This document shows positions 3,929 to 59,150 of a stretch of DNA of 64,000 bases, one piece after another (the first letter of the stretch is position 1; every line of letters begins with the position of its first letter). A model generated the notes under the pieces. The model did not search any database and was not told the DNA's origin. It saw nothing but the letters and a program-made list of their open reading frames with translations. The position numbers and the translations under genes are program-made. The DNA is from Escherichia phage fKMPT1, in the sequence record PP620640; one strand, given 5' to 3'.

Positions 3929-5275
3929 ATGAGTTCGAATATCTTCAGACTTGCTGATAGATTATTCAACCAACCTTTACTAGCCACTGAATCATTAGCT
4001 CACTCAGCAGCAACTTATGTGAATAACAGATTGCTGGGTGATGTCCAAGCAGCAGTAAACTTTGATAAACCCAAAGGTGAAGCAAGAAGTCTTTTAAAAG
4101 TAAAAGATGATATTGCTATTATCCCTATTATGGGTGGTTTAACCCATCGTATGACATTCATTGATGCAATGTGTACGGGTGGTTTAAGCTCTTATGAGGG
4201 TTTACGCAGAGGCTTTGACGAAGCTTTAGCAGATGAGTCAATTAAGACTATTGTTCTGCATATTGATTCTGGTGGTGGTGAAGCTTCAGGTTGCTTTGAA
4301 TTAGCACGTCACATTATGGCTTCAAGAGGCCAAAAGAAAATTATTGCTTATGTAGATGAGTTCGCTTGTTCCGCTGCATATGCTCTTGCATCTTCTGCTG
4401 AAGAAATTATTGCATCACCAGATGCAGATGTTGGTTCTATCGGTGTAATCATGGTTCATCAGGAATTAACTAAGGCATTTGAAAAGAATGGCGTAACAAT
4501 TAACGTCATCAAAGCTGGTGAGTTTAAAGGTATGGGTTCACCATTCCAAGCACTTTCAGAAGAAAGCAAAGAAAGACTTCAAAAGAGAATTAATGATACC
4601 TACGCAACCTTTACAGGTTTTGTAGCTGAATCTCGTAATCTCTCTGAAGAAGCTGTAAAGAATACTGAGGCGAATGTTTATTCTGCTCAGGAAGCTCTTG
4701 AACTTGGTTTAATTAACTCAATCATGTCTCAAGATGATTTCTTAAATTACTTACAAGGTTCTGAAGAGGCTCCTGTAAGTTTAAACGTTAACAATTCAGG
4801 TGAAGAAATGACTGAACAAGAAAAGCAAGAACTAGAAACTTTGCGTCTTCAGGTTGCTCAAATGAAAGCTAAAGAACAGGAAGCTGCTTTGTCAGATTTG
4901 ACTAATAAGATTTCTGCTTCTGCTGAAGCTTTTGGATTTGATGCAAAAGAAGCTGCAACGACTATTTTAGGTGCTGGTCTTGATAACCCTCTGAGTGTTC
5001 TGTTTATGAATGCTATGGAAGGTGCTAACCAGAAACTTAATGAAACTATCGCGTCCCACGCTTCTGCAATGGAAGAAAAAGAATCAGAAATTACCAAGCT
5101 GAAAGAAACTGCTGGTGCTGTTCTTGAACATTCCAACGCTATGGAAGAAATGGGTAATGACGGCGAAGCTGATTTGGTTGAAGAAGAAAAAGAACCAGCT
5201 AAGAATGCTTCCGAAGACACCGCTGAACAACGCAAACTGGCTCTCCAGAATGCTCTAAAATCTCTTATCAAATAA
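3929..5275 (+). CDS. Prohead protease, S49 (SppA/ClpP-fold) family with C-terminal coiled-coil scaffold-like region
   Basis: 448 aa; S49-like segments HIDSGGGEASGCFELARHI and AYVDEFACSAAYALASSAEEI, VGSIGVIM; acidic/helical C-terminus; lies between portal and capsid. Confidence 0.7.
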   Translation: MSSNIFRLADRLFNQPLLATESLAHSAATYVNNRLLGDVQAAVNFDKPKGEARSLLKVKDDIAIIPIMGGLTHRMTFIDAMCTGGLSSYEGLRRGFDEALADESIKTIVLHIDSGGGEASGCFELARHIMASRGQKKIIAYVDEFACSAAYALASSAEEIIASPDADVGSIGVIMVHQELTKAFEKNGVTINVIKAGEFKGMGSPFQALSEESKERLQKRINDTYATFTGFVAESRNLSEEAVKNTEANVYSAQEALELGLINSIMSQDDFLNYLQGSEEAPVSLNVNNSGEEMTEQEKQELETLRLQVAQMKAKEQEAALSDLTNKISASAEAFGFDAKEAATTILGAGLDNPLSVLFMNAMEGANQKLNETIASHASAMEEKESEITKLKETAGAVLEHSNAMEEMGNDGEADLVEEEKEPAKNASEDTAEQRKLALQNALKSLIK

Positions 5276-5664: not shown

Positions 5665-5697
5665 TAACAATAATAAGACATTCTGGAGAATTTTACA

Positions 5698-6810
5698 ATG
5701 TTGACTAATTCTGAAAAAAGCAGATTTTTCCTTGCTGACCTGACTGGTGAAGTCCAGTCTATCCCAAATACTTATGGGTATATTTCCAACTTAGGTCTGT
5801 TCCGTTCAGCACCAATCACCCAAACTACTTTCCTTATGGACTTGACTGATTGGGATGTTAGCTTGCTTGATGCGGTAGACCGTGATAGCCGTAAAGCAGA
5901 GACTAGCGCACCTGAGCGAGTTCGTCAAATCAGCTTCCCAATGATGTACTTCAAAGAAGTTGAAAGCATCACTCCTGATGAAATTCAGGGTGTACGTCAG
6001 CCAGGCACTGCAAACGAACTGACTACTGAAGCAGTAGTACGTGCTAAGAAGCTGATGAAGATTCGTACCAAGTTCGATATTACTCGTGAGTTTCTGTTTA
6101 TGCAAGCTCTGAAGGGTAAAGTTGTTGATGCTCGTGGTACTCTGTACGCTGACCTGTACAAGCAGTTCGACGTTGAGAAGAAGACTATTCACTTCGACCT
6201 AGACAACCCTAATGCTGACATCGACGCTTCTATTGAAGAACTGCGTATGCACATGGAAGACGAAGCGAAGACTGGCACTGTAATCAACGGTGAAGAAATT
6301 CACGTAGTTGTTGACCGTGTATTCTTCAGCAAACTGGTTAAGCATCCGAAGGTTCGTGACGCTTATCTTGCACAGCAGACTCCACTGGCTTGGCAGCAGA
6401 TTACTGGTTCTCTGAGAACTGGTGGTACTGACGGCGTTCAGGCTCACATGAACACTTTCTACTACGGTGGTGTTAAGTTTGTCCAGTACAACGGTAAGTT
6501 CAAAGACAAGCGTGGTAAGGTTCACACTCTGGTGAGCATTGATGGTGTTACTCAGGATGGAACTGTAGGTGTAGGACATGCTTTCCCTAACGTTTCTATG
6601 CTGGGTGAAGCAAACAACATCTTCGAAGTGGCATATGGCCCATGTCCTAAGATGGGTTACGCGAATACACTTGGTCAGGAACTATACGTATTCGAATACG
6701 AAAAAGACCGTGACGAAGGTATCGACTTTGAAGCTCACTCTTACATGCTGCCATACTGTACTCGTCCTCAGCTGCTGGTAGATGTTCGTTCTGACGCTAA
6801 AGGCGAATAA
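5698..6810 (+). CDS. Major capsid protein (candidate)
   Basis: 370-aa ORF following protease; codon usage visibly shifted toward CTG/CGT/GGT/GAA typical of highly expressed genes. Confidence 0.55.
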   Translation: MLTNSEKSRFFLADLTGEVQSIPNTYGYISNLGLFRSAPITQTTFLMDLTDWDVSLLDAVDRDSRKAETSAPERVRQISFPMMYFKEVESITPDEIQGVRQPGTANELTTEAVVRAKKLMKIRTKFDITREFLFMQALKGKVVDARGTLYADLYKQFDVEKKTIHFDLDNPNADIDASIEELRMHMEDEAKTGTVINGEEIHVVVDRVFFSKLVKHPKVRDAYLAQQTPLAWQQITGSLRTGGTDGVQAHMNTFYYGGVKFVQYNGKFKDKRGKVHTLVSIDGVTQDGTVGVGHAFPNVSMLGEANNIFEVAYGPCPKMGYANTLGQELYVFEYEKDRDEGIDFEAHSYMLPYCTRPQLLVDVRSDAKGE

Positions 6811-23548: not shown

Positions 23549-23576
23549 AAGGCTCCTTTTTACGGGAGCCTTTTTG
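23549..23576. terminator. Bidirectional intrinsic terminator between convergent genes
   Basis: ggctcc-loop-ggagcc hairpin flanked by A-run upstream and TTTTTGTTTT downstream. Confidence 0.65.
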
Positions 23577-23579
23577 TTT

Positions 23580-24479
23580 TTACTTACCTACTGACAGAGG
23601 TGCTTCAATCTTACCTGCATGTTGGTAGTTATTAATCCCACCAATAAAGTCACTTGCAGTAAGATGTTTCAGGTCACTTAAAGTATTAAGTGGTAGACCA
23701 ATCTCAAAAGTTGGTGCATGGAACTCTTCATTGTTCATCAGTTCATAAACCTGCTTCATATGGTTCTGATAAATTTGAGTATCTCCAAAGACACCTATCA
23801 AGTACCGTGGAGTGTATCCGGTCATCTTGCAAAGAACTTCCAGAATAAAACCATAAGAGGCAATATTAAATGGAAGTCCTAAGAAGGTGTCTACTGAACG
23901 CTGATACCATTGTAAGTCAACTTCACCCTCGTTAGTGATATAAATCTGAAACAGTACATGACAAGGTGCTAAAGCCATTGAGTTCGCTGCAATATCTGCT
24001 GCATTCCAAGCATTAACAAGCATGTAACGGTCTGTGATATCACCCTTCATCTTCGTTACTAAGGTCTCTAGCTGGTCTACAACACAACCGTTATGACCTT
24101 CGAAGTTTCTCCACTGAACCCCATAGATTCTCCCACCTGCATCCTCTAACCAATCTTGTTCAGAAGAATAATTAGAGCTTAACCAGCGTTTAAAATCATC
24201 TGACCAGATAGTCCAGCGTTCTCCGTCATTTTCACCCCAAGTACGGTAACGAAGTTCACCAAGCTTATTCTCACCATTCAGGAACCATAAAGCTTCCCCA
24301 ATAACTTGCCGTGTAAACACCTGTTTAGATGTTAATAGCGGGAAACCAGTTCGCATATCAAAACGAAACTGAGGTGGAGCAAATGCAGAGATAACATCTC
24401 CAGTTCGTGTAGTACGCAGTTCACCAACGGATAAAACATGGTTCAGGATATTTTTGTAACTTGTATCTGCTTGTGACAT
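23580..24479 (-). CDS. thyA: Thymidylate synthase (ThyA/Td family)
   Basis: 299 aa; near-collinear with E. coli ThyA: RTGDV, FPLLTSK, WFLNG, YGVQWR, MALAPCH catalytic Cys, YQRSVDTFLGLPFNIASY, GDTQIYQNH. Confidence 0.85.
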   Translation of the reverse strand: MSQADTSYKNILNHVLSVGELRTTRTGDVISAFAPPQFRFDMRTGFPLLTSKQVFTRQVIGEALWFLNGENKLGELRYRTWGENDGERWTIWSDDFKRWLSSNYSSEQDWLEDAGGRIYGVQWRNFEGHNGCVVDQLETLVTKMKGDITDRYMLVNAWNAADIAANSMALAPCHVLFQIYITNEGEVDLQWYQRSVDTFLGLPFNIASYGFILEVLCKMTGYTPRYLIGVFGDTQIYQNHMKQVYELMNNEEFHAPTFEIGLPLNTLSDLKHLTASDFIGGINNYQHAGKIEAPLSVGK

Positions 24480-24480
24480 A

Positions 24481-25026
24481 TCAAAAGTGTCCTTTTACTT
24501 GTGGAACATAAATTTCAAAGGTTGCTTTACCATCCTCTGATGGTTTTGACTGTACCTTTGTAAATACACGGTTATCATACAGCTTCTCGAAGAAGTTTTC
24601 AAAAGGTAAATGCACAGTGGTCTCTTCAGTAACTTTATGGAAAACTGTATGGAAAACTACACCAGCATACGGTAAAGCATTGACAAGGACACCTGCACCA
24701 CCAATTACAAAGACATCTTCATCAATAGAGCTATCAAGATAGTTCAAGAATGCTCCAAAGGATTCTTTGCTGGCCTTAGCATACATTACATCATCTTTGC
24801 CAAAATCTATGCCTAAATATGGTACAGAATTTGTTAAGATTAGGTTTGCACGTTCTGGTAAAGGTTTACTCCCCAGAGTCTTGAAAGTTTCATTACCCAT
24901 CACTACTAAGTTGTTTTTAGTGAGTCTCTTAAACTCTTGCATGTCCTGTTTATGTCGAGGCCACGGCATACCAGTTGGAGTACCAAACTCACCATTTTCA
25001 CCACTTGCAAAGATTAATTTAATCAT
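24481..25026 (-). CDS. frd: Dihydrofolate reductase
   Basis: 181 aa; N-terminal MIKLIFA...GMPWPRHKQDMQEFKRLT and VVMGNETFKTL resemble phage/bacterial DHFR; adjacent to thyA. Confidence 0.7.
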   Translation of the reverse strand: MIKLIFASGENGEFGTPTGMPWPRHKQDMQEFKRLTKNNLVVMGNETFKTLGSKPLPERANLILTNSVPYLGIDFGKDDVMYAKASKESFGAFLNYLDSSIDEDVFVIGGAGVLVNALPYAGVVFHTVFHKVTEETTVHLPFENFFEKLYDNRVFTKVQSKPSEDGKATFEIYVPQVKGHF

Positions 25027-25283
25027 TTTGTAAATCCTTTCTTAATGAACCAGTTGACAACATTCTTCACAGCTTTATTGCTATGATAGATTAAGTGTGG
25101 TGTAGGTTGGTATGAACCATAGGCCCAGAAAGCAATAATTTCACTACACCCTGTACACCTTGTACTCTCTTCAGCAATATGACCGTTGACTATTTCACTC
25201 ACCTCACCTTGTAAGTCTGTACATCCACAATGTGGGCAACGGATAGGTGCTCCGTCAGACTCATAGCAGTGTTCAATTTTCAT
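25023..25283 (-). CDS. Small zinc-ribbon protein
   Basis: 86 aa with CPHCGC ... CTGC cysteine pairs. Confidence 0.4.
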   Translation of the reverse strand: MKIEHCYESDGAPIRCPHCGCTDLQGEVSEIVNGHIAEESTRCTGCSEIIAFWAYGSYQPTPHLIYHSNKAVKNVVNWFIKKGFTK

Positions 25284-25799
25284 TTATTTAACCTCAAAAA
25301 CTGGTTCAAGAACCAATATAAAGTCTACACAGTCATCTTCTTCATCCAGAATACCATCAAAGTTCTTAGGAACGAAGTCGAAGAGACTCATCACAAAGCA
25401 GTCAGAAGTAACCCTGATAGTTCCTCCGATGTTCTCTACAGTTAACACTGTACGACTTTCTTTTACCTCTCGCAAAAGATTACTCACAAAGTCATCTAAG
25501 AAGTACTTCATCAGTGATTTAAAGCCTTTAGGGTAATCTGTACCAGAGTATGTTTCAATCTGAGGTACAAGCTTAACATTTATACTAGTCTTTGTTAAGA
25601 ATGTGTTAGAGAACATACTATCAGGTAACTTACAAACAATCTTTCCAGTACCTTCATGTTCAATCTCAACAAAACCAGCTTCATCGCCACATGTAACTAT
25701 TTTAAAAGATGCTTCATTCTCACACTGTGAAGCCATAAACTTTTTAAGCATAATTTTAAGGAAATCTGCATGAGCATCTTGTAAGTAGACATCAATCAT
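25284..25799 (-). CDS. Hypothetical protein
   Basis: 171-aa ORF in tightly packed minus-strand operon. Confidence 0.4.
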   Translation of the reverse strand: MIDVYLQDAHADFLKIMLKKFMASQCENEASFKIVTCGDEAGFVEIEHEGTGKIVCKLPDSMFSNTFLTKTSINVKLVPQIETYSGTDYPKGFKSLMKYFLDDFVSNLLREVKESRTVLTVENIGGTIRVTSDCFVMSLFDFVPKNFDGILDEEDDCVDFILVLEPVFEVK

Positions 25800-25812
25800 A
25801 GTTAATCACCTA

Positions 25813-26172
25813 TTATGGGAACAGACACTTAATGTCATCATTTTTGAAAACGAAGCTTGTGTAATTGTGACCATCAACATCCAGCCAAACAGCCTGAACA
25901 TCTACACCATCAAGATTGTGGTAAATCTCTTTGATGAAGTGGTCTTTTACAATCTGGCTACTAGTTGTTTCCAGCTTAATGTTTGAGATTGCTGAACCTA
26001 CAGCCATATAACCCATGACACGTTTCTTCTCAGTATGCTTAATCTTACCATCTTTATAAGCCATAATGAGATTGGAAAGAATCTTCACACCATAATACTT
26101 TTCAAGGTGAGTAGGTACACCATAAAAGCCTAATGCGAAGTTTTCAGAGTGGATAATGTTTTCACGTTTCAT
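25813..26172 (-). CDS. Hypothetical protein
   Basis: 119-aa ORF. Confidence 0.4.
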   Translation of the reverse strand: MKRENIIHSENFALGFYGVPTHLEKYYGVKILSNLIMAYKDGKIKHTEKKRVMGYMAVGSAISNIKLETTSSQIVKDHFIKEIYHNLDGVDVQAVWLDVDGHNYTSFVFKNDDIKCLFP

Positions 26173-26173
26173 A

Positions 26174-26503
26174 TTAATCTGCCAGCCTTAAATTAAAATT
26201 AACACCAAATTTTTCGCATACTTCCAACATATACTCAAGCGAGACATTACCAGTGAGGTGGATTATGTTGGATACGCGAGCCTGAGAGATACCACAAATT
26301 TTAGCAACTTGCTCTTGAGAAAGACCTCTGGATTTAATCTCTCTCTTAAAACGATGTGCAACGAAGTCTCTCATTTCGTCTACATCCATTGGACAAATAT
26401 AACTCTCCATTTCAGCCTCTCTGTCAACCTCCCAATCATCTTGTGGAGCATAAGGGTCAAAAGTCTCATTCATCTTTCTTCTTCCGTTTGCGTGAAGTGT
26501 CAA
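26174..26503 (-). CDS. Helix-turn-helix (XRE-like) DNA-binding protein
   Basis: 109 aa; C-terminal region LSQEQVAKICGISQARVSNIIH typical HTH. Confidence 0.55.
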   Translation of the reverse strand: MTLHANGRRKMNETFDPYAPQDDWEVDREAEMESYICPMDVDEMRDFVAHRFKREIKSRGLSQEQVAKICGISQARVSNIIHLTGNVSLEYMLEVCEKFGVNFNLRLAD

Positions 26504-26678
26504 TCAATGAATCTATGTTTGTAGCCCTAACCTTTTCACGTTCATCGTTAAGATAATCATCAAGAGCCTTTTCAATCTGTGAATCATCTTGACAGATAAC
26601 TGTAAAGACTGTAAAGCCGTCTGTATCGTCAATTATCTTACCATAACCGCTTCTGGGGTGTAACTTTTTAAGAGCCAT
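26466..26678 (-). CDS. Hypothetical small protein
   Basis: 70-aa ORF with basic C-terminus. Confidence 0.35.
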   Translation of the reverse strand: MALKKLHPRSGYGKIIDDTDGFTVFTVICQDDSQIEKALDDYLNDEREKVRATNIDSLIDTSRKRKKKDE

Positions 26679-26679
26679 A

Positions 26680-27063
26680 TCAAATACCTGTGCAGCTTCT
26701 GTTTTCTAAGAAATACTCAACACCATACATAGCTTTTTGCATCAAATCTTCTTTAAACTGGATGCGATGGTTGAGCATAGCCTGTACATCAATATCATCA
26801 TGGTGCTTTTCTTTAATATTTGCAGATTGCAGGAAATACTCTCCAAGAACACGATACTGGTAGTCAGTTACCTTATCAGTCATCTCTGTCAAAGACTCTT
26901 CAGAGATTGGTTTAAGTAGCTCACCTTTAGATAGCGCAACACCTTTTACAATCTGGCAAGTGTCTTCTGGAACACCTGATAAGTCCACATTTGGAAGTTC
27001 TGTTGCATTGACTGGTAAATTCATTGCCATAACCATTGCAGCAGCTAATAAAATCTTTTTCAT
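26680..27063 (-). CDS. Secreted/periplasmic small protein
   Basis: 127 aa; N-terminal signal peptide MKKILLAAAMVMAMNLPVNA. Confidence 0.5.
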   Translation of the reverse strand: MKKILLAAAMVMAMNLPVNATELPNVDLSGVPEDTCQIVKGVALSKGELLKPISEESLTEMTDKVTDYQYRVLGEYFLQSANIKEKHHDDIDVQAMLNHRIQFKEDLMQKAMYGVEYFLENRSCTGI

Positions 27064-27169
27064 AATGACCTCAAAGTTATATTAAATTTTGTATTACATT
27101 GAGTATAAAAATAAGCTATAACACCTGACTTGTCAACAGATTTTATAGCTTATTTGGCAGATTTTTTAT

Positions 27170-27430
27170 AAGGCTACTGCCATCCTTCCATACCACACCA
27201 AACCACACCTTACCTCACACCACCACACCCAACCGAGCCTGACCTTATTAAAAGACCCTCTTAAAGACCTTTTAAAAAGGTAAGTCTCATTTTAATGTAG
27301 TTGAGACTAACTACCCATACTTTACCGGACCTTACTGGACCATACCTAACACCACCGAACCAAACCATACACCACCGAACCGTACCATACCAGACATCAC
27401 TTAAAAACCCTCTTAGAAAGACTCTTAAGT
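27170..27430. repeat. Duplicated G-depleted CA-rich module with conserved TTAAAA(G)ACCCTCTTA box
   Basis: Two ~100-130-bp units (27170-27270 and 27300-27430): plus strand runs of CCA/CAC/ACC almost devoid of G (e.g. ccataccacaccaaaccacaccttacctcacaccaccacaccc; accaccgaacc twice), each ending in ttaaaagaccctcttaaagacc / ttaaaaaccctcttagaaagac. Confidence 0.6.
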
Positions 27431-27648
27431 GATGCTGGTGAGTACCCGTTGGTTTATGCTGCTCAGTATACTCACCAAATTTTCTATGTCAACAACTTTT
27501 ATAAAAAAGTTCTGATAGCTATATGCGTCACGAAACAAAAGATTGTAAACAAGACACCCATTGCAAAAGATGTGTCCAAAAGCTTACTTGCAACGTATGA
27601 CAATACAAAGACAACCAGTATAAACAAAATGACTGTACTGAACATAGT

Positions 27649-28749
27649 TTACTCATAATCCCTAATAACTAGCCCAACAGGAAACTGTAAAGACCCCTTA
27701 CGAGTCATCTTCTGGAACTGAACCGTTAAAGGTTTCCCGATAAACTCTTCAGGATGCTCAGCAAGATACTGTTTCTTCTCATGAGTAGTCTTCCATGAGA
27801 CATCTACAAAGACGTTAGGAAGCGTCTCTACAACGAACTTGCCATGACCACGTTTATCGGTCTTTACACCAGTTACTTTAAACTCTTCAGTGTGCATCTT
27901 CTTGTGCTTAATCAAGAAGTATGAACGGTGACAACACTCATAGAAGGAGTCTTCAGAAATTGAACGGTACATTGCACCTTCAAACTTAGCTTCAACCCAC
28001 TTATCATGGGCTTCATCAAACTCTTCCCAAGAGTTAACACGACGAGATTTAACAGGGACAACTTTACAGCCATCTCTAAAGTCATTCAATGGTGAAGTCT
28101 CAATAATATCTCTACGCTCAGGCCACGTCTTAGTACTGTCACAGATATCATACCAGTAGAACTGGAGTAGATGTCGGTCTGGATTGTCAGCATTCTTAAT
28201 CATAGACACAATGTCTTCTAAGTCCCAACCATGAGCATAAATCTCGCCATCAAAGTCTTTAACTTGCGGATGTAATTTAAGCAACAAAAGTAAATCTGGG
28301 ATTAGTTCTGCTGGAACGTTGTAAACAGTATTCTCACGAGAATAAGCCGTGAAGCTAACTGAATCAGCATCTCTTGAAATTCTACAACGAACACCATCAA
28401 GTTTTGGTTGAGCATCAGCAGGGAATATCAAATACTTTGCATGACTAACCTTTGCAGCATCATGCGCAAGCTGTACACCTACCTTCTCAGTATTCTGTGC
28501 AGACTCTTTTGTGTAAGCATAACCTTTGCGGTCAACCTGCTTTTTATACTTAGCAGCAACTTCAAAGAGAGCTTGCTGTTCAGCGTTACGCTCATTCTTT
28601 TTACCGATGTTTTTAGGTTCTGCTGTATACTCTTCAAACATCATCTTGCCATTCTCTTTACCGTAGGTTGTAATAACTTTGTCGCCTACAGCAACACATG
28701 ACCAGACGTTGAAGGAGCCATCTTTATTTTGTTTGTATAGAATTGTCAT
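27649..28749 (-). CDS. ATP-dependent DNA ligase
   Basis: 366 aa; adenylation motif I KLDGVRC (KxDG); size as T7-type ligases. Confidence 0.8.
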   Translation of the reverse strand: MTILYKQNKDGSFNVWSCVAVGDKVITTYGKENGKMMFEEYTAEPKNIGKKNERNAEQQALFEVAAKYKKQVDRKGYAYTKESAQNTEKVGVQLAHDAAKVSHAKYLIFPADAQPKLDGVRCRISRDADSVSFTAYSRENTVYNVPAELIPDLLLLLKLHPQVKDFDGEIYAHGWDLEDIVSMIKNADNPDRHLLQFYWYDICDSTKTWPERRDIIETSPLNDFRDGCKVVPVKSRRVNSWEEFDEAHDKWVEAKFEGAMYRSISEDSFYECCHRSYFLIKHKKMHTEEFKVTGVKTDKRGHGKFVVETLPNVFVDVSWKTTHEKKQYLAEHPEEFIGKPLTVQFQKMTRKGSLQFPVGLVIRDYE

Positions 28750-59073: not shown

Positions 59074-59106
59074 TGTTTGACAAGGGGCTTCAAAGCCCCT
59101 TAGAAT
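59074..59106 (+). promoter_or_regulatory. Promoter, TGTTTGACA-N18-TAGAAT with GC hairpin in spacer
   Basis: -35 TTGACA 59077-59082; spacer aggggcttcaaagcccct (palindromic); -10 TAGAAT 59101-59106. Confidence 0.5.
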
Positions 59107-59150
59107 AGTCTTACAAAATGATTTATTAACTAACAAGAGAGAGTAATAAG

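Follow-up and report, generated by a model that had tools for sequence, protein, structure and literature searches.

The window analysed here, a 64,000-nucleotide stretch of Escherichia phage fKMPT1 (PP620640), is of the Felix O1-like virulent myovirus type and is 100% identical to Salmonella phage fBSPA4. On its minus strand, six small open reading frames are packed between positions 25023 and 27063 and coincide with the annotated coding sequences ASP4_00031–00036 of fBSPA4; a previous sequence-only reading of this DNA had given both the coordinates and the gene count exactly. ORF1 (25023–25283) encodes an 86-residue Cys4 zinc ribbon, ORF2 (25284–25799) an acidic protein of 171 residues (pI 4.5), ORF3 (25813–26172) a 119-residue protein, ORF4 (26174–26473) a 99-residue XRE-type helix-turn-helix (HTH) protein, ORF5 (26466–26678) a 70-residue protein and ORF6 (26680–27063) a 127-residue protein that is predicted to be secreted. 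On the same strand lie frd (dihydrofolate reductase; 24481–25026) and td (thymidylate synthase; 23580–24479), which annotation and spacing place at the distal end of the transcription unit to which the six belong.

The block is already known as the long-annotated ORF82–87 of Felix O1-like phages. ORF1 to ORF6 are direct orthologues of Felix O1 ORF82 to ORF87 (NP_944930, NP_944932-NP_944934, NP_944937, NP_944938), and correspond in the same order to genes 32 to 37 of phage Bas63 (JohannRWettstein). Gene order, lengths and overlaps are the same in both relatives, with protein identities of 88–100%. The Felix O1 record differs in the spacer between ORF87 and ligase, which is 282 nt there versus 585 nt here.

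All six genes are under purifying selection, with mean pairwise dN/dS values of 0.025–0.13 across five Felixounavirus genomes, similar to those of td, frd and ligase. Each matches a PHROG family (E-values of 1e-41 to 1e-89), and the block is syntenic in approximately 258 phage genomes. Given the low dN/dS values, the PHROG matches and the many phage records, the six reading frames are more than chance ORFs. In tblastn searches with five of the genes, ORF6, ORF5 and ORF2 were each found in 258 phage records, from Felixounavirus, Mooglevirus and Suspvirus, whereas ORF3, with 300 records, and ORF1, with 407, have a wider range. ORF4 occurs in 260 records, two of which are partial, 36%-identity matches in Zymomonas records. 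Between genera, ORF6 and ORF2 are the fastest evolving of the six, at 34% and 40% identity, respectively, versus 65–70% for the other block genes. Profile and sequence searches returned no homology of the six to virion or replication proteins, a finding that would have refuted the sequence-only reading. None of the six proteins is named among the Bas63 virion structures, and sequence and fold searches with ORF2, ORF3, ORF5 and ORF6 yielded no function.

The six genes probably constitute the promoter-proximal half of one operon reaching through frd and td. From the frd/ORF1 junction, where ORF1 overlaps the frd start by 4 nt, to the ORF5/ORF6 junction, the successive gaps are −4, 0, 13, 1, −8 and 1 nt, and td and frd are 1 nt apart; this packing and the ribosome-binding sites support the operon reading. 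A terminator scan found no terminator-like site on the minus strand between 27063 and 23580. The same scan placed a GC-rich hairpin terminator, with no strand assigned, at 23549–23572, between the convergent td and holin-side genes, which is the site of terminators t79 and t80 of Felix O1 (PMC3185647). RT-PCR of Felix O1 demonstrated transcription of ORF83, ORF84 and ORF87, which peak at 25 min, like td and ligase, and not at the late 60-min point (PMC3185647).

Upstream of ORF6 lies a conserved non-coding element (27105–27200, minus strand) that carries the predicted operon promoter. Its core of approximately 90 nt (about 27107–27198) is 100% identical in fBSPA4, Felix O1, wV8, Bas63, UAB_Phi87, Moogle and SUSP2, such that promoter and palindrome are perfectly conserved over three genera. 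The element supplies the sole fully conserved 40-nt windows in a 2.8-kb between-genera comparison, the remainder of which is 30–93% identical, and it is present at ≥95% identity in 229 of 230 phage records, mostly as one copy per genome. A consensus scan places a sigma-70-like promoter, TTGACA-N17-TATTTT, at 27136–27108 on the minus strand, 45 nt upstream of the ORF6 ATG, with 10 of 12 hexamer positions matching. Because the scan returned 7 sites in total versus 12 expected from shuffled sequence, which is not above chance, the promoter call rests on position and perfect conservation.

A repeat search identified a 19-nt imperfect inverted repeat, AAATAAGCTATAAAATCTG / CAGGTGTTATAGCTTATTT, at 27109–27155 (no strand). 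Its arms are 89% complementary, are separated by 9 nt and bracket the −35 box. The repeat is also present in Moogle and SUSP2, and within the 64-kb window exact occurrences of the half-site TAAGCTATAA are confined to the two arms. These arms lie 28 bp apart centre to centre, an unusual spacing for a simple HTH dimer. The RNA form of the repeat has a folding energy of −17.8 kcal/mol (z = −2.98), and a stretch rich in U comes after it. The repeat may serve as an operator for the ORF4 HTH or, alternatively, as a terminator-like hairpin for upstream transcripts; in view of this hairpin fold, it may not be an operator.

ORF4 exceeds the Pfam HTH_3 (PF01381) cut-off of 23 bits with a score of 39.4 (E = 6.2e-10; profile positions 2–52 of 55), in agreement with the XRE-type HTH proposed previously. 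The domain spans residues 43–93, and the N-terminal 40 residues are acidic. ORF4 also matches Pfam HTH_37 marginally (27.9 bits, cut-off 27.0), belongs to PHROG 1373, which is annotated as ‘transcriptional regulator’, and falls below the NCBIfam cut-offs for HigA (20.4 versus 47.7 bits), Y4mF (23.2 versus 71.65) and PezA (22.4 versus 290). The best genuine match among PDB sequences is the HTH of PezA (E = 0.007); a stronger match to the ‘CAP REPEAT’ repeat protein is a summed multi-repeat match and is not genuine. Translation likely starts at the ATG at 26473, giving 99 residues, and not at the TTG at 26503. The ATG is the start annotated in fBSPA4, wV8, Bas63, Moogle and SUSP2, whereas in the Felix O1 RefSeq record the gene begins at the TTG and is longer.

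ORF4 has the HTH_3 domain in common with XRE/Cro-CI regulators, including restriction-modification control proteins, PezA and HigA, and, as with XRE/Cro-CI autoregulators, its own operon promoter carries a palindrome, here the candidate operator. Unlike typical members of this group, it is found in a strictly virulent phage, is needed for lytic growth and carries a 40-residue acidic N-terminal extension. Its locus also differs in the 28-bp separation of the half-sites and has neither an adjacent lysogeny module nor a recognisable toxin. Kolesnikvirus phages lack the HTH although they belong to the same subfamily, of which it is therefore no universal regulator. ORF5 overlaps the start of the HTH gene by 8 nt (ATGAATGA). 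It had been described as a basic protein, but its pI is 5.8, with 14 Lys and Arg residues versus 15 Asp and Glu residues; its C-terminal tail, NxDSLIDTSRKRxKKDE, is invariant, and only the end of that tail, SRKRKKKDE, is basic. PHROG 4473 is the only family that ORF5 matches, with nothing significant in Pfam, NCBIfam, PADLOC or PDB sequences.

ORF3 is the most constrained gene of the six and is kept throughout the Ounavirinae, Kolesnikvirus among them. The ‘nucleoside triphosphate hydrolase’ label given to its Bas63 orthologue, gene 34, in the table of the insertion screen discussed below is unsupported by any profile search performed here. ORF2 has no Pfam, NCBIfam, PADLOC or PDB match; it is 40% identical to its Moogle orthologue, and in SUSP2 the orthologue is split into two ORFs.

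The Cys4 zinc ribbon ascribed to ORF1 is borne out by its four cysteines, C16, C19, C43 and C46, which are invariant in seven diverse homologues and are followed by a conserved WAYGxYxP motif. This single CxxC...CxxC ribbon has Lar-like spacing. ORF1 itself scores 16.9 bits against NCBIfam Lar (TIGR03655; cut-off 39.6) and 19.9 bits against ECs_2282 (cut-off 37). Among seven family members, sub-threshold NCBIfam matches were obtained to ECs_2282 for five and to Lar for four, the best Lar match reaching E = 2.4e-4, and two of the seven matched Pfam Lar (PF14354) at E = 0.005. An hhalign comparison of ORF1 with K-12 RalR/Lar gave a probability of 76% (E = 2e-5) over 32 columns. Lar/RalR of the E. 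coli Rac prophage, the ECs_2282 family of zinc-binding prophage proteins and ORF1 are all small proteins with one CPxCG...CxxC ribbon of similar spacing. ORF1 differs from Lar in its extra invariant WAYGxYxP motif and C-terminal helix-like tail, and in scores well under both family cut-offs.

The N-terminus of ORF6 reads MKK-ILLAAAMVMAMNL-PVNA, with TE following the cleavage site, and by inspection comprises a basic n-region, a hydrophobic core and an AxA-type cleavage site. This pattern is kept in all ORF6 orthologues, with AVA, ASA or AYA ends, despite an identity of just about 33% across the mature region. The signal peptide claimed by the sequence-only reading is therefore present as a conserved Sec-type pattern. 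An AlphaFold2 model (pLDDT 86.7) has helices at residues 31–45, 55–90 and 93–121 and leaves residues 1–18 unstructured; the mature protein of approximately 107 residues models as an acidic three-helix bundle. Cysteines C36 and C124 are invariant in all orthologues and are possibly disulfide-linked. The family has just 5 representatives among 1.84 billion proteins and is restricted to Felixounavirus, Mooglevirus and Suspvirus. Foldseek searches with the model gave no PDB match at E ≤0.001, with only generic helical bundles at E ≥0.5, and in BFVD matched only the Mooglevirus orthologue; phmmer found no match among PDB sequences. There is no lipobox, as no cysteine lies at or near the cleavage site and the first is residue 36, which argues against an Llp/Cor-type lipoprotein or an o-spanin. 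No lipoprotein ORF embedded in or adjoining ORF6 appears in the ORF list. Identification of ORF6 as an i-spanin is ruled against by the AxA cleavage motif, by this lack of a partner ORF and by the 25-min peak of the Felix O1 orthologue.

T4 Spackle (Sp) and Imm and the T5 lipoprotein Llp are small, pre-late, envelope-exported superinfection-exclusion proteins of virulent phages. ORF6 resembles them in its export signal pattern and in the pre-late transcription of its Felix O1 orthologue. It differs in having no sequence or fold match to them, none being among the Foldseek matches in PDB or BFVD, and, relative to T5 Llp, in having no lipobox. Superinfection exclusion would be a possibility for ORF6 alone among the six proteins, and none of the results favours it specifically.

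The same six genes have been disrupted in Bas63, in which genome-wide pooled insertions were scored by PhageMaP (preprint, 10.1101/2024.10.10.617714). The screen concerns Bas63 rather than fBSPA4 and covers four hosts (S17-1, MG1655, BW25113 and DH10B); negative scores are taken to indicate essential genes, with non-essential genes lying around +1 and DNA polymerase at −1.3 to −4. Fitness was −1.2 to −1.5 for gene 35 (HTH) and −0.9 to −1.3 for gene 34 (119 residues) in all four hosts, and −0.5 to −1.4, with very large variance, for gene 36 (70 residues) (10.1101/2024.10.10.617714). Gene 32 (zinc ribbon) scored −0.7 to −1.25 in S17-1, MG1655 and BW25113, with about −1.0 to −1.25 in the latter two, versus approximately −0.14 in DH10B (10.1101/2024.10.10.617714). 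Scores were near 0 for gene 37 (secreted protein) and about 0 to +0.3 for gene 33 (acidic, 171 residues), and disruption of frd and td was nearly neutral at −0.5 to +0.3 (10.1101/2024.10.10.617714).

Since genes 37 and 33 are near neutral despite strongly negative genes downstream, polarity is small and the phenotypes are largely gene-specific. The data show that most of the six genes are needed for normal lytic growth, while ORF6 and ORF2 look optional. The sequence-only reading had called the whole block accessory and had proposed superinfection exclusion or host modulation; these scores contradict the accessory label for most of the genes. An accessory, host-interaction role is still reasonable for ORF6 and ORF2. 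With respect to gene 32, DH10B lacks several restriction systems, and its nucleoside uptake and (p)ppGpp genes likewise set it apart from the other three strains. The authors of the screen interpreted the host dependence of gene 32 as anti-restriction (10.1101/2024.10.10.617714). A host-genotype-dependent, possibly counter-defence, role for ORF1 is a reasonable interpretation.

Alternative explanations differ in how many of these observations they accommodate. It is unlikely that the whole block is an accessory cassette, dispensable for lytic growth, whose secreted protein and HTH act in superinfection exclusion or host modulation. The fitness lost on disrupting the HTH or ORF3 is similar to that for several replication genes; the same holds for ORF5, though with large variance, and for ORF1 in three of the four hosts, and these costs arise in plain laboratory E. 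coli without a superinfecting phage. The block is, moreover, fixed in its approximately 258 genomes under strong purifying selection. The absence of virion or replication homologues, the ORF6 export signal, the rapid evolution and near-neutral disruption of ORF6 and ORF2, and the requirement for ORF1 in only some hosts favour such a cassette; however, the ORF6 model is similar in fold to no solved or predicted viral protein except its own orthologue, and no literature linking Felixounavirus genes to exclusion was found. A rather unlikely alternative is that ORF1, and perhaps ORF2 and ORF3, assist frd and td, for example as components or regulators of a dNTP-synthesis complex. The 4-nt overlap of ORF1 with frd suggests such a link, as do the neighbours of ORF1-type zinc ribbons, which are anaerobic ribonucleotide reductase genes in a Hafnia phage, ribose-phosphate pyrophosphokinase in Erwinia phages and, about 1.2 kb downstream, a dUTPase gene in phage JenP1; the nucleoside-uptake and (p)ppGpp differences of DH10B, in which gene 32 is dispensable, also fit. 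These neighbourhoods are, however, broad early-gene regions in which adjacency is weak evidence, the homologue in Krischvirus ECD7 lies among unknown early genes near alt, and frd and td are themselves near neutral, in contrast to the strongly negative genes 32 and 34, a pattern not readily accounted for if these two genes did no more than assist frd and td.

ORF5 and ORF4 could also be construed as a toxin–antitoxin-like pair, a small toxin followed by an HTH antitoxin as in HigB–HigA, with the HTH ‘essential’ only because it neutralises or represses ORF5. The 8-nt overlap with the small gene first, the acidic extension ahead of the HTH, the bare crossing of the HTH_37 threshold and weak matches to HigA, Y4mF/HipB, PezA and ‘addiction module antidote’ models are consistent with this arrangement, as are the deleterious effect of HTH disruption and the presence of ORF5 in all 258 records with ORF6 and ORF2 (the HTH being in 260). 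Against it, the antitoxin models score 20–23 bits versus cut-offs of 48–290, Pfam, NCBIfam and PADLOC searches place ORF5 in no toxin family, its disruption is negative on average rather than neutral, and the two genes are fixed in a virulent phage, unlike mobile addiction modules. The pairing, and with it that account of HTH essentiality, is accordingly improbable. Least probable is a role for ORF6 in lysis, as a spanin-like or antiholin-like envelope protein. Its hydrophobic N-terminal segment, predicted long helical periplasmic domain and conserved cysteines, and the holin-type gene just past td on the opposite strand, would suit such a role. Yet the conserved AxA motif ends the hydrophobic segment, which is thus no plain membrane anchor, and ORF6 has neither a lipobox nor an embedded or adjacent lipoprotein ORF. 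The i-spanin and o-spanin of Bas63 are genes 89 and 90 (10.1101/2024.10.10.617714), the Felix O1 orthologue of ORF6 peaks at 25 min with the replication genes and not at 60 min, and disruption of the Bas63 orthologue is near neutral.

On balance, the most probable explanation, favoured at somewhat better than even confidence, is an operon conserved among virulent phages of the Felix O1 type, in which the six genes fall into three functional groups, a mixed set rather than a single functional module. Transcription would start at the host-type promoter at 27136–27108, before the late genes, proceed through ORF6, ORF5, ORF4, ORF3, ORF2, ORF1, frd and td, and stop at the hairpin at 23549–23572. 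The first group would comprise lytic-cycle genes: the ORF4 HTH, ORF5 and ORF3. We infer that ORF4, as a regulator required by the lytic cycle itself, binds the 19-nt inverted repeat at its own operon promoter and tunes operon expression, with ORF5 translationally coupled to the HTH gene. ORF1, which resembles the small Lar-type prophage zinc ribbons, would be conditionally needed. It may neutralise a host function that MG1655, BW25113 and S17-1 possess and DH10B lacks, whether restriction or a nucleotide or stringent-response difference. The third group would consist of the fast-evolving, dispensable ORF6 and ORF2, ORF6 presumably being Sec-exported and active in the infected cell's periplasm or envelope, and ORF2 being an acidic cytoplasmic protein.

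More speculatively, ORF4, the coupled ORF5 and the approximately 90-nt element might together form a self-contained regulatory switch that Felix O1-like virulent phages need for their lytic programme, and ORF6 might represent a new class of lineage-restricted periplasmic three-helix-bundle factor; this extension is doubtful on present evidence. If it is true, the product of the first gene driven by the switch would act on the host envelope during infection, for instance to counter superinfection.

The six minus-strand genes between frd and the DNA ligase gene are best read as the first six genes of a pre-late operon, the tested Felix O1 genes of which peak at 25 min. These six genes would fall into three classes. 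The helix-turn-helix (HTH) protein ORF4, ORF3 and probably ORF5 would be needed for lytic growth, and the zinc-ribbon protein ORF1 would be needed in some hosts only. The secreted helical bundle ORF6 and the acidic protein ORF2 would be dispensable and fast-evolving.

A 3.3-kb query around the block matched Salmonella phage fBSPA4 (OR711204.1) at 100% identity and more than 200 Felix O1-like phages at 90–95% identity. ORF1–ORF6 are annotated as coding sequences ASP4_00031–00036 of fBSPA4, and each has a one-to-one counterpart in Felix O1 (ORF82–87), wV8 (genes 88–93) and Bas63 (genes 32–37). The block is bounded on one side by frd (24481–25026) and on the other by a 585-nt spacer and then the ligase gene. 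From frd outwards, neighbouring genes are spaced by −4, 0, 13, 1, −8 and 1 nt, and a recognisable Shine-Dalgarno sequence precedes several of the six. Mean pairwise dN/dS values across five Felixounavirus genomes are 0.127, 0.094, 0.025, 0.062, 0.045 and 0.101 for ORF1 to ORF6, respectively, compared with 0.024 for td, 0.129 for frd and 0.128 for ligase; no disrupted copy of the compared genes was found in these genomes. An Rfam scan of 24900–27700 returned no match. The six ORFs are real genes.

The sequence-only reading had placed all six ORFs exactly (ORF1, 25023–25283; ORF2, 25284–25799; ORF3, 25813–26172; ORF4, 26174–26473; ORF5, 26466–26678; ORF6, 26680–27063), and its description of them was essentially right. 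The zinc ribbon it recognised in ORF1 has four cysteines that, together with W53, Y55, G56 and P60, do not vary among homologues drawn from six genera of phages, its HTH assignment for ORF4 is borne out by a Pfam HTH_3 score of 39.4 bits (cut-off 23), and the signal peptide pattern of ORF6 (MKK, a hydrophobic core and VNA|TE) is kept in orthologues. The exception is the 70-residue ORF5, which had been called basic, but has a pI of 5.8 and a basic part confined to the tail SRKRKKKDE. The accompanying interpretation, superinfection exclusion or host modulation, is supported in part: superinfection exclusion is one candidate role, a possibility for ORF6 alone in the block.

The proposed classes draw on the PhageMaP preprint (10.1101/2024.10.10.617714), in which barcoded insertions in 149 of 161 Bas63 genes were scored for fitness on four Escherichia coli hosts. 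Bas63 proteins 32–37 are 88–100% identical to the window proteins. On the PhageMaP scale, a negative score is taken to mark an essential gene, whereas non-essential ones lie near +1. According to the supplementary tables (10.1101/2024.10.10.617714), gene 35 (ORF4) scored −1.17 to −1.47 across S17-1, MG1655, BW25113 and DH10B, gene 34 (ORF3) scored −0.87 to −1.34, and gene 36 (ORF5) scored −0.5 to −1.4 with a variance above 1. Gene 32 (ORF1) scored −0.70 to −0.82 in S17-1, −1.19 to −1.25 in MG1655, −1.01 to −1.08 in BW25113 and −0.12 to −0.17 in DH10B; the authors remark on the DH10B exception and propose that the gene may counter Type IV restriction (10.1101/2024.10.10.617714). The same tables give −0.12 to +0.31 for gene 33 (ORF2), +0.32 to −0.41 for gene 37 (ORF6), with one DH10B replicate at −0.98, and −0.8 to +0.36 for the distal genes td and frd (10.1101/2024.10.10.617714). 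Because disrupting gene 37 or gene 33 has a near-neutral effect despite strongly negative genes downstream, polar effects are small. Genes 33 and 37 also stayed near zero under TerY-P and AVAST type 4, two of the defence-system conditions inspected, and the text of 10.1101/2024.10.10.617714 names neither as a counter-defence gene or trigger. The virion components named in the cryo-EM work on Bas63 include none of the six proteins.

A putative promoter, TTGACA-N17-TATTTT, lies on the minus strand at 27136–27108, 45 nt upstream of the ORF6 start, and a second, TTGACA-N16-TATACT, lies at 27492–27465. The sole convincing terminator in the scan is a hairpin at 23549–23572, beyond td (23580–24479). 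As the promoter scan as a whole showed no enrichment over shuffled sequence, the promoter call rests on conservation. A non-coding stretch of ~90 nt that contains the promoter (27105–27200, minus strand; core ~27107–27198) is 100% identical in five Felixounavirus genomes, and likewise in Moogle and SUSP2, which belong to the other genera Mooglevirus and Suspvirus. In sliding windows over 2.8 kb, fully conserved windows were confined to this stretch, and the remainder, flanking genes included, was 30–93% identical in DNA sequence. The stretch is present at ≥95% identity in 229 of 230 phage records, mostly as a single copy per genome.

Within the stretch, an imperfect inverted repeat of 19 nt flanks the −35 box on both sides; its half-site, TAAGCTATAA, is absent elsewhere in the 64-kb window. 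A second small palindrome, TGGCAG-N16-CTGCCA, is also present. As RNA, the inverted-repeat sequence forms an 18-bp hairpin (−17.8 kcal/mol, z = −2.98) with a U-rich run behind it, so it could serve as an operator, terminate transcripts arriving from upstream, or do both. That the ~90-nt stretch is perfectly conserved hints at a function beyond that of a promoter, such as operator, terminator or replication origin. A motif upstream of the promoter, TATAAAANNTGTTGACA, occurs at the two promoters of the ORF6–ligase intergenic region only, a count that is not significant. Elsewhere in the genome, a sigma-70-like promoter (59077–59110, plus strand; TTGACA...TAGAAT) carries a GC-rich hairpin, GGGGCTTCAAAGCCCC, in its spacer, and arrangements in which terminator and promoter overlap may recur through this genome.

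In Felix O1, each ORF tested by RT-PCR yielded a transcript (PMC3185647). Transcripts of ORF83, ORF84 and ORF87 peaked at 25 min, as did those of td and ligase; the frd transcript peaked at 10 min (PMC3185647). The mechanism that times Felix O1 transcription is not known, and neither a phage RNA polymerase nor a polymerase modifier is apparent in its genome (PMC3185647). ORF4 consists of a standard XRE domain preceded by a 40-residue acidic extension, and its 99-residue ATG start agrees better with orthologues than a 109-residue TTG start. Its strong match to 8vd6 ('CAP REPEAT') was discounted as a summed multi-repeat match (12–18 bits per repeat) and not a natural relative.

Two roles for ORF4 in transcription were weighed. 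It might be a universal temporal regulator of the subfamily, or an autoregulator tied to this operon. The same three genera carry ORF4, ORF5, ORF6, ORF2 and the invariant promoter with its palindrome, and Kolesnikvirus lacks the HTH protein; we therefore favour the operon-tied autoregulator. No wider regulon for ORF4 was derivable. A toxin–antitoxin-like pairing of ORF5 with ORF4 ranks lower. The antitoxin-like matches of ORF4 are weak and, except for a marginal HTH_37 score, far under cut-off; a PADLOC scan gave no defence-system match apart from generic HTH control proteins, and ORF5, like ORF2, had no match in the Pfam, NCBIfam, PADLOC or PDB-sequence searches. Also ranked lower is a role for ORF1–ORF3 in nucleotide metabolism. 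A profile search with ORF3 found 13 clusters, all named ones being from Ounavirinae phages, and sequence searches of the PDB (phmmer, hmmsearch) with ORF1, ORF2, ORF3, ORF5 and ORF6 gave nothing meaningful. Two names in the Bas63 screen table, 'nucleoside triphosphate hydrolase' for gene 34 (ORF3) and 'heme degrading enzyme-like' for gene 36 (ORF5), were reproduced by no profile search. Where cluster members of ORF1, ORF2, ORF5 and ORF6 carry a source name, it is hypothetical, uncharacterized or 'phage protein'; this look-up excludes ORF3 and ORF4, the exact sequences of which are not in that collection.

ORF1 gave recurrent sub-threshold matches to the ECs_2282 and Lar families, and hhalign against K-12 RalR/Lar gave 76% probability over the zinc ribbon region only. 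ORF1 thus resembles Lar, yet does not pass the family threshold; it shows no resemblance to YdaE, another zinc-binding protein of Rac. Homologues of ORF1 lie beside anaerobic ribonucleotide reductase genes in a Hafnia phage, directly upstream of a ribose-phosphate pyrophosphokinase gene in an Erwinia phage, and ~1.2 kb from a downstream dUTPase gene in JenP1, neighbours that echo the overlap of ORF1 with frd here. In a 90%-identity protein collection, ORF1 and ORF2 share a single 1313-member cluster. This grouping is probably an artefact of the clustering, and gene calls fused over the 0-nt junction may be its cause.

The mature parts of ORF6 orthologues are 31–35% identical, with C36 and C124 invariant. 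Scanned in full with HMMER, a set of 1.84 billion representative proteins yielded five family members, all of Felix or Moogle type, and word-indexed searches with ORF6 and ORF2 found relatives at ≥91% identity only. The AlphaFold2 model of ORF6 is confident (pLDDT 86.7) and places three helices after an unstructured signal peptide. Foldseek searches with this model found nothing specific in the PDB (generic helical bundles, best E 0.54), and the Mooglevirus orthologue was the only specific match in BFVD. A role for ORF6 in lysis ranks lower.

The six genes differ in distribution and divergence, so the block is a string of genes with differing histories and not one cassette. ORF6, ORF5 and ORF2 are each present in 258 phage records (Felixounavirus, Mooglevirus and Suspvirus). 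The count for ORF4 is 260, including two Zymomonas records with a partial match at 36% identity. ORF3 reaches across the whole of Ounavirinae, with 300 records; in Kolesnikvirus-type phages of Erwinia and Salmonella it is flanked by genes for an HflK-like protein and a CCA-adding enzyme, and the HTH gene is not nearby. ORF1-type zinc ribbons extend to 407 records, including Krischvirus, Nonagvirus, a Xanthomonas jumbo phage and Vibrio phages. When fBSPA4 is compared with Moogle, protein identity is 67% for frd, 65% for ORF1, 70% for ORF3 and 69% for ORF4, with a lower group of ORF5 (54%), ORF2 (40%) and ORF6 (34%). Moogle and SUSP2 carry an extra gene of 166–167 codons between the ORF3 and ORF2 orthologues that fBSPA4 lacks, and the SUSP2 orthologue of ORF2 is split into ORFs of 100 and 68 residues and is thus probably decaying; this extra-gene and split-ORF2 region spans 5665–6168 of the Moogle stretch, and 3981–4481 and 4483–5000 of the SUSP2 stretch. 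A 185-residue gene product in the Kolesnikvirus ligase–frd interval proved unrelated to ORF2. Felix O1- or Ounavirinae-type genes also appear in records of Campylobacter phages A132 and A126 (MG065664/MG065668) and Staphylococcus phage SA1 (GU169904), at 92–100% protein identity, and such gene content appears in Listeria phage LPML1 (OK283618) at 37%; these records are probably contaminated assemblies or mislabelled hosts.

The spacer between ORF6 and ligase contains an ACC/GGT-rich array (27181–27401) with 10- and 15-nt periodicity and eight overlapping copies of a 44-nt unit, located between the two similar promoters at 27136 and 27492. Its repeats resemble iterons. In wV8, Moogle and SUSP2 this interval holds a two-gene cassette (588 + 441 nt). 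The Moogle and SUSP2 copies, from different genera, are 99% identical, and in wV8 direct repeats flank the cassette. The interval resembles a recombination hot spot. An unannotated 48-codon ORF (27499–27645, minus strand) starts 3 nt past the ligase stop codon and encodes a very hydrophobic protein (GRAVY 1.86, two predicted membrane helices). Its counterpart is annotated in Bas63 (bas63_0038) and UAB_Phi87 (Phi87_107) and lacks annotation in fBSPA4.

Novelty is low and the discovery is modest, because the genes were already annotated, transcription of three Felix O1 orthologues had been demonstrated and the Bas63 counterparts had been mutagenised. Felix O1-like phages, classic tools for Salmonella typing, now see wide use in biocontrol, and the three-class split tells phage engineers which genes would be deletable and which might have host-range or exclusion functions. 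Two leads stand out as most useful: the putative lytic-growth regulator with its perfectly conserved promoter element, and ORF6, the orphan secreted protein. The ORF4 HTH protein, together with a promoter and palindrome perfectly conserved across three genera, offers a concrete handle on the timing of Felix O1-like transcription.
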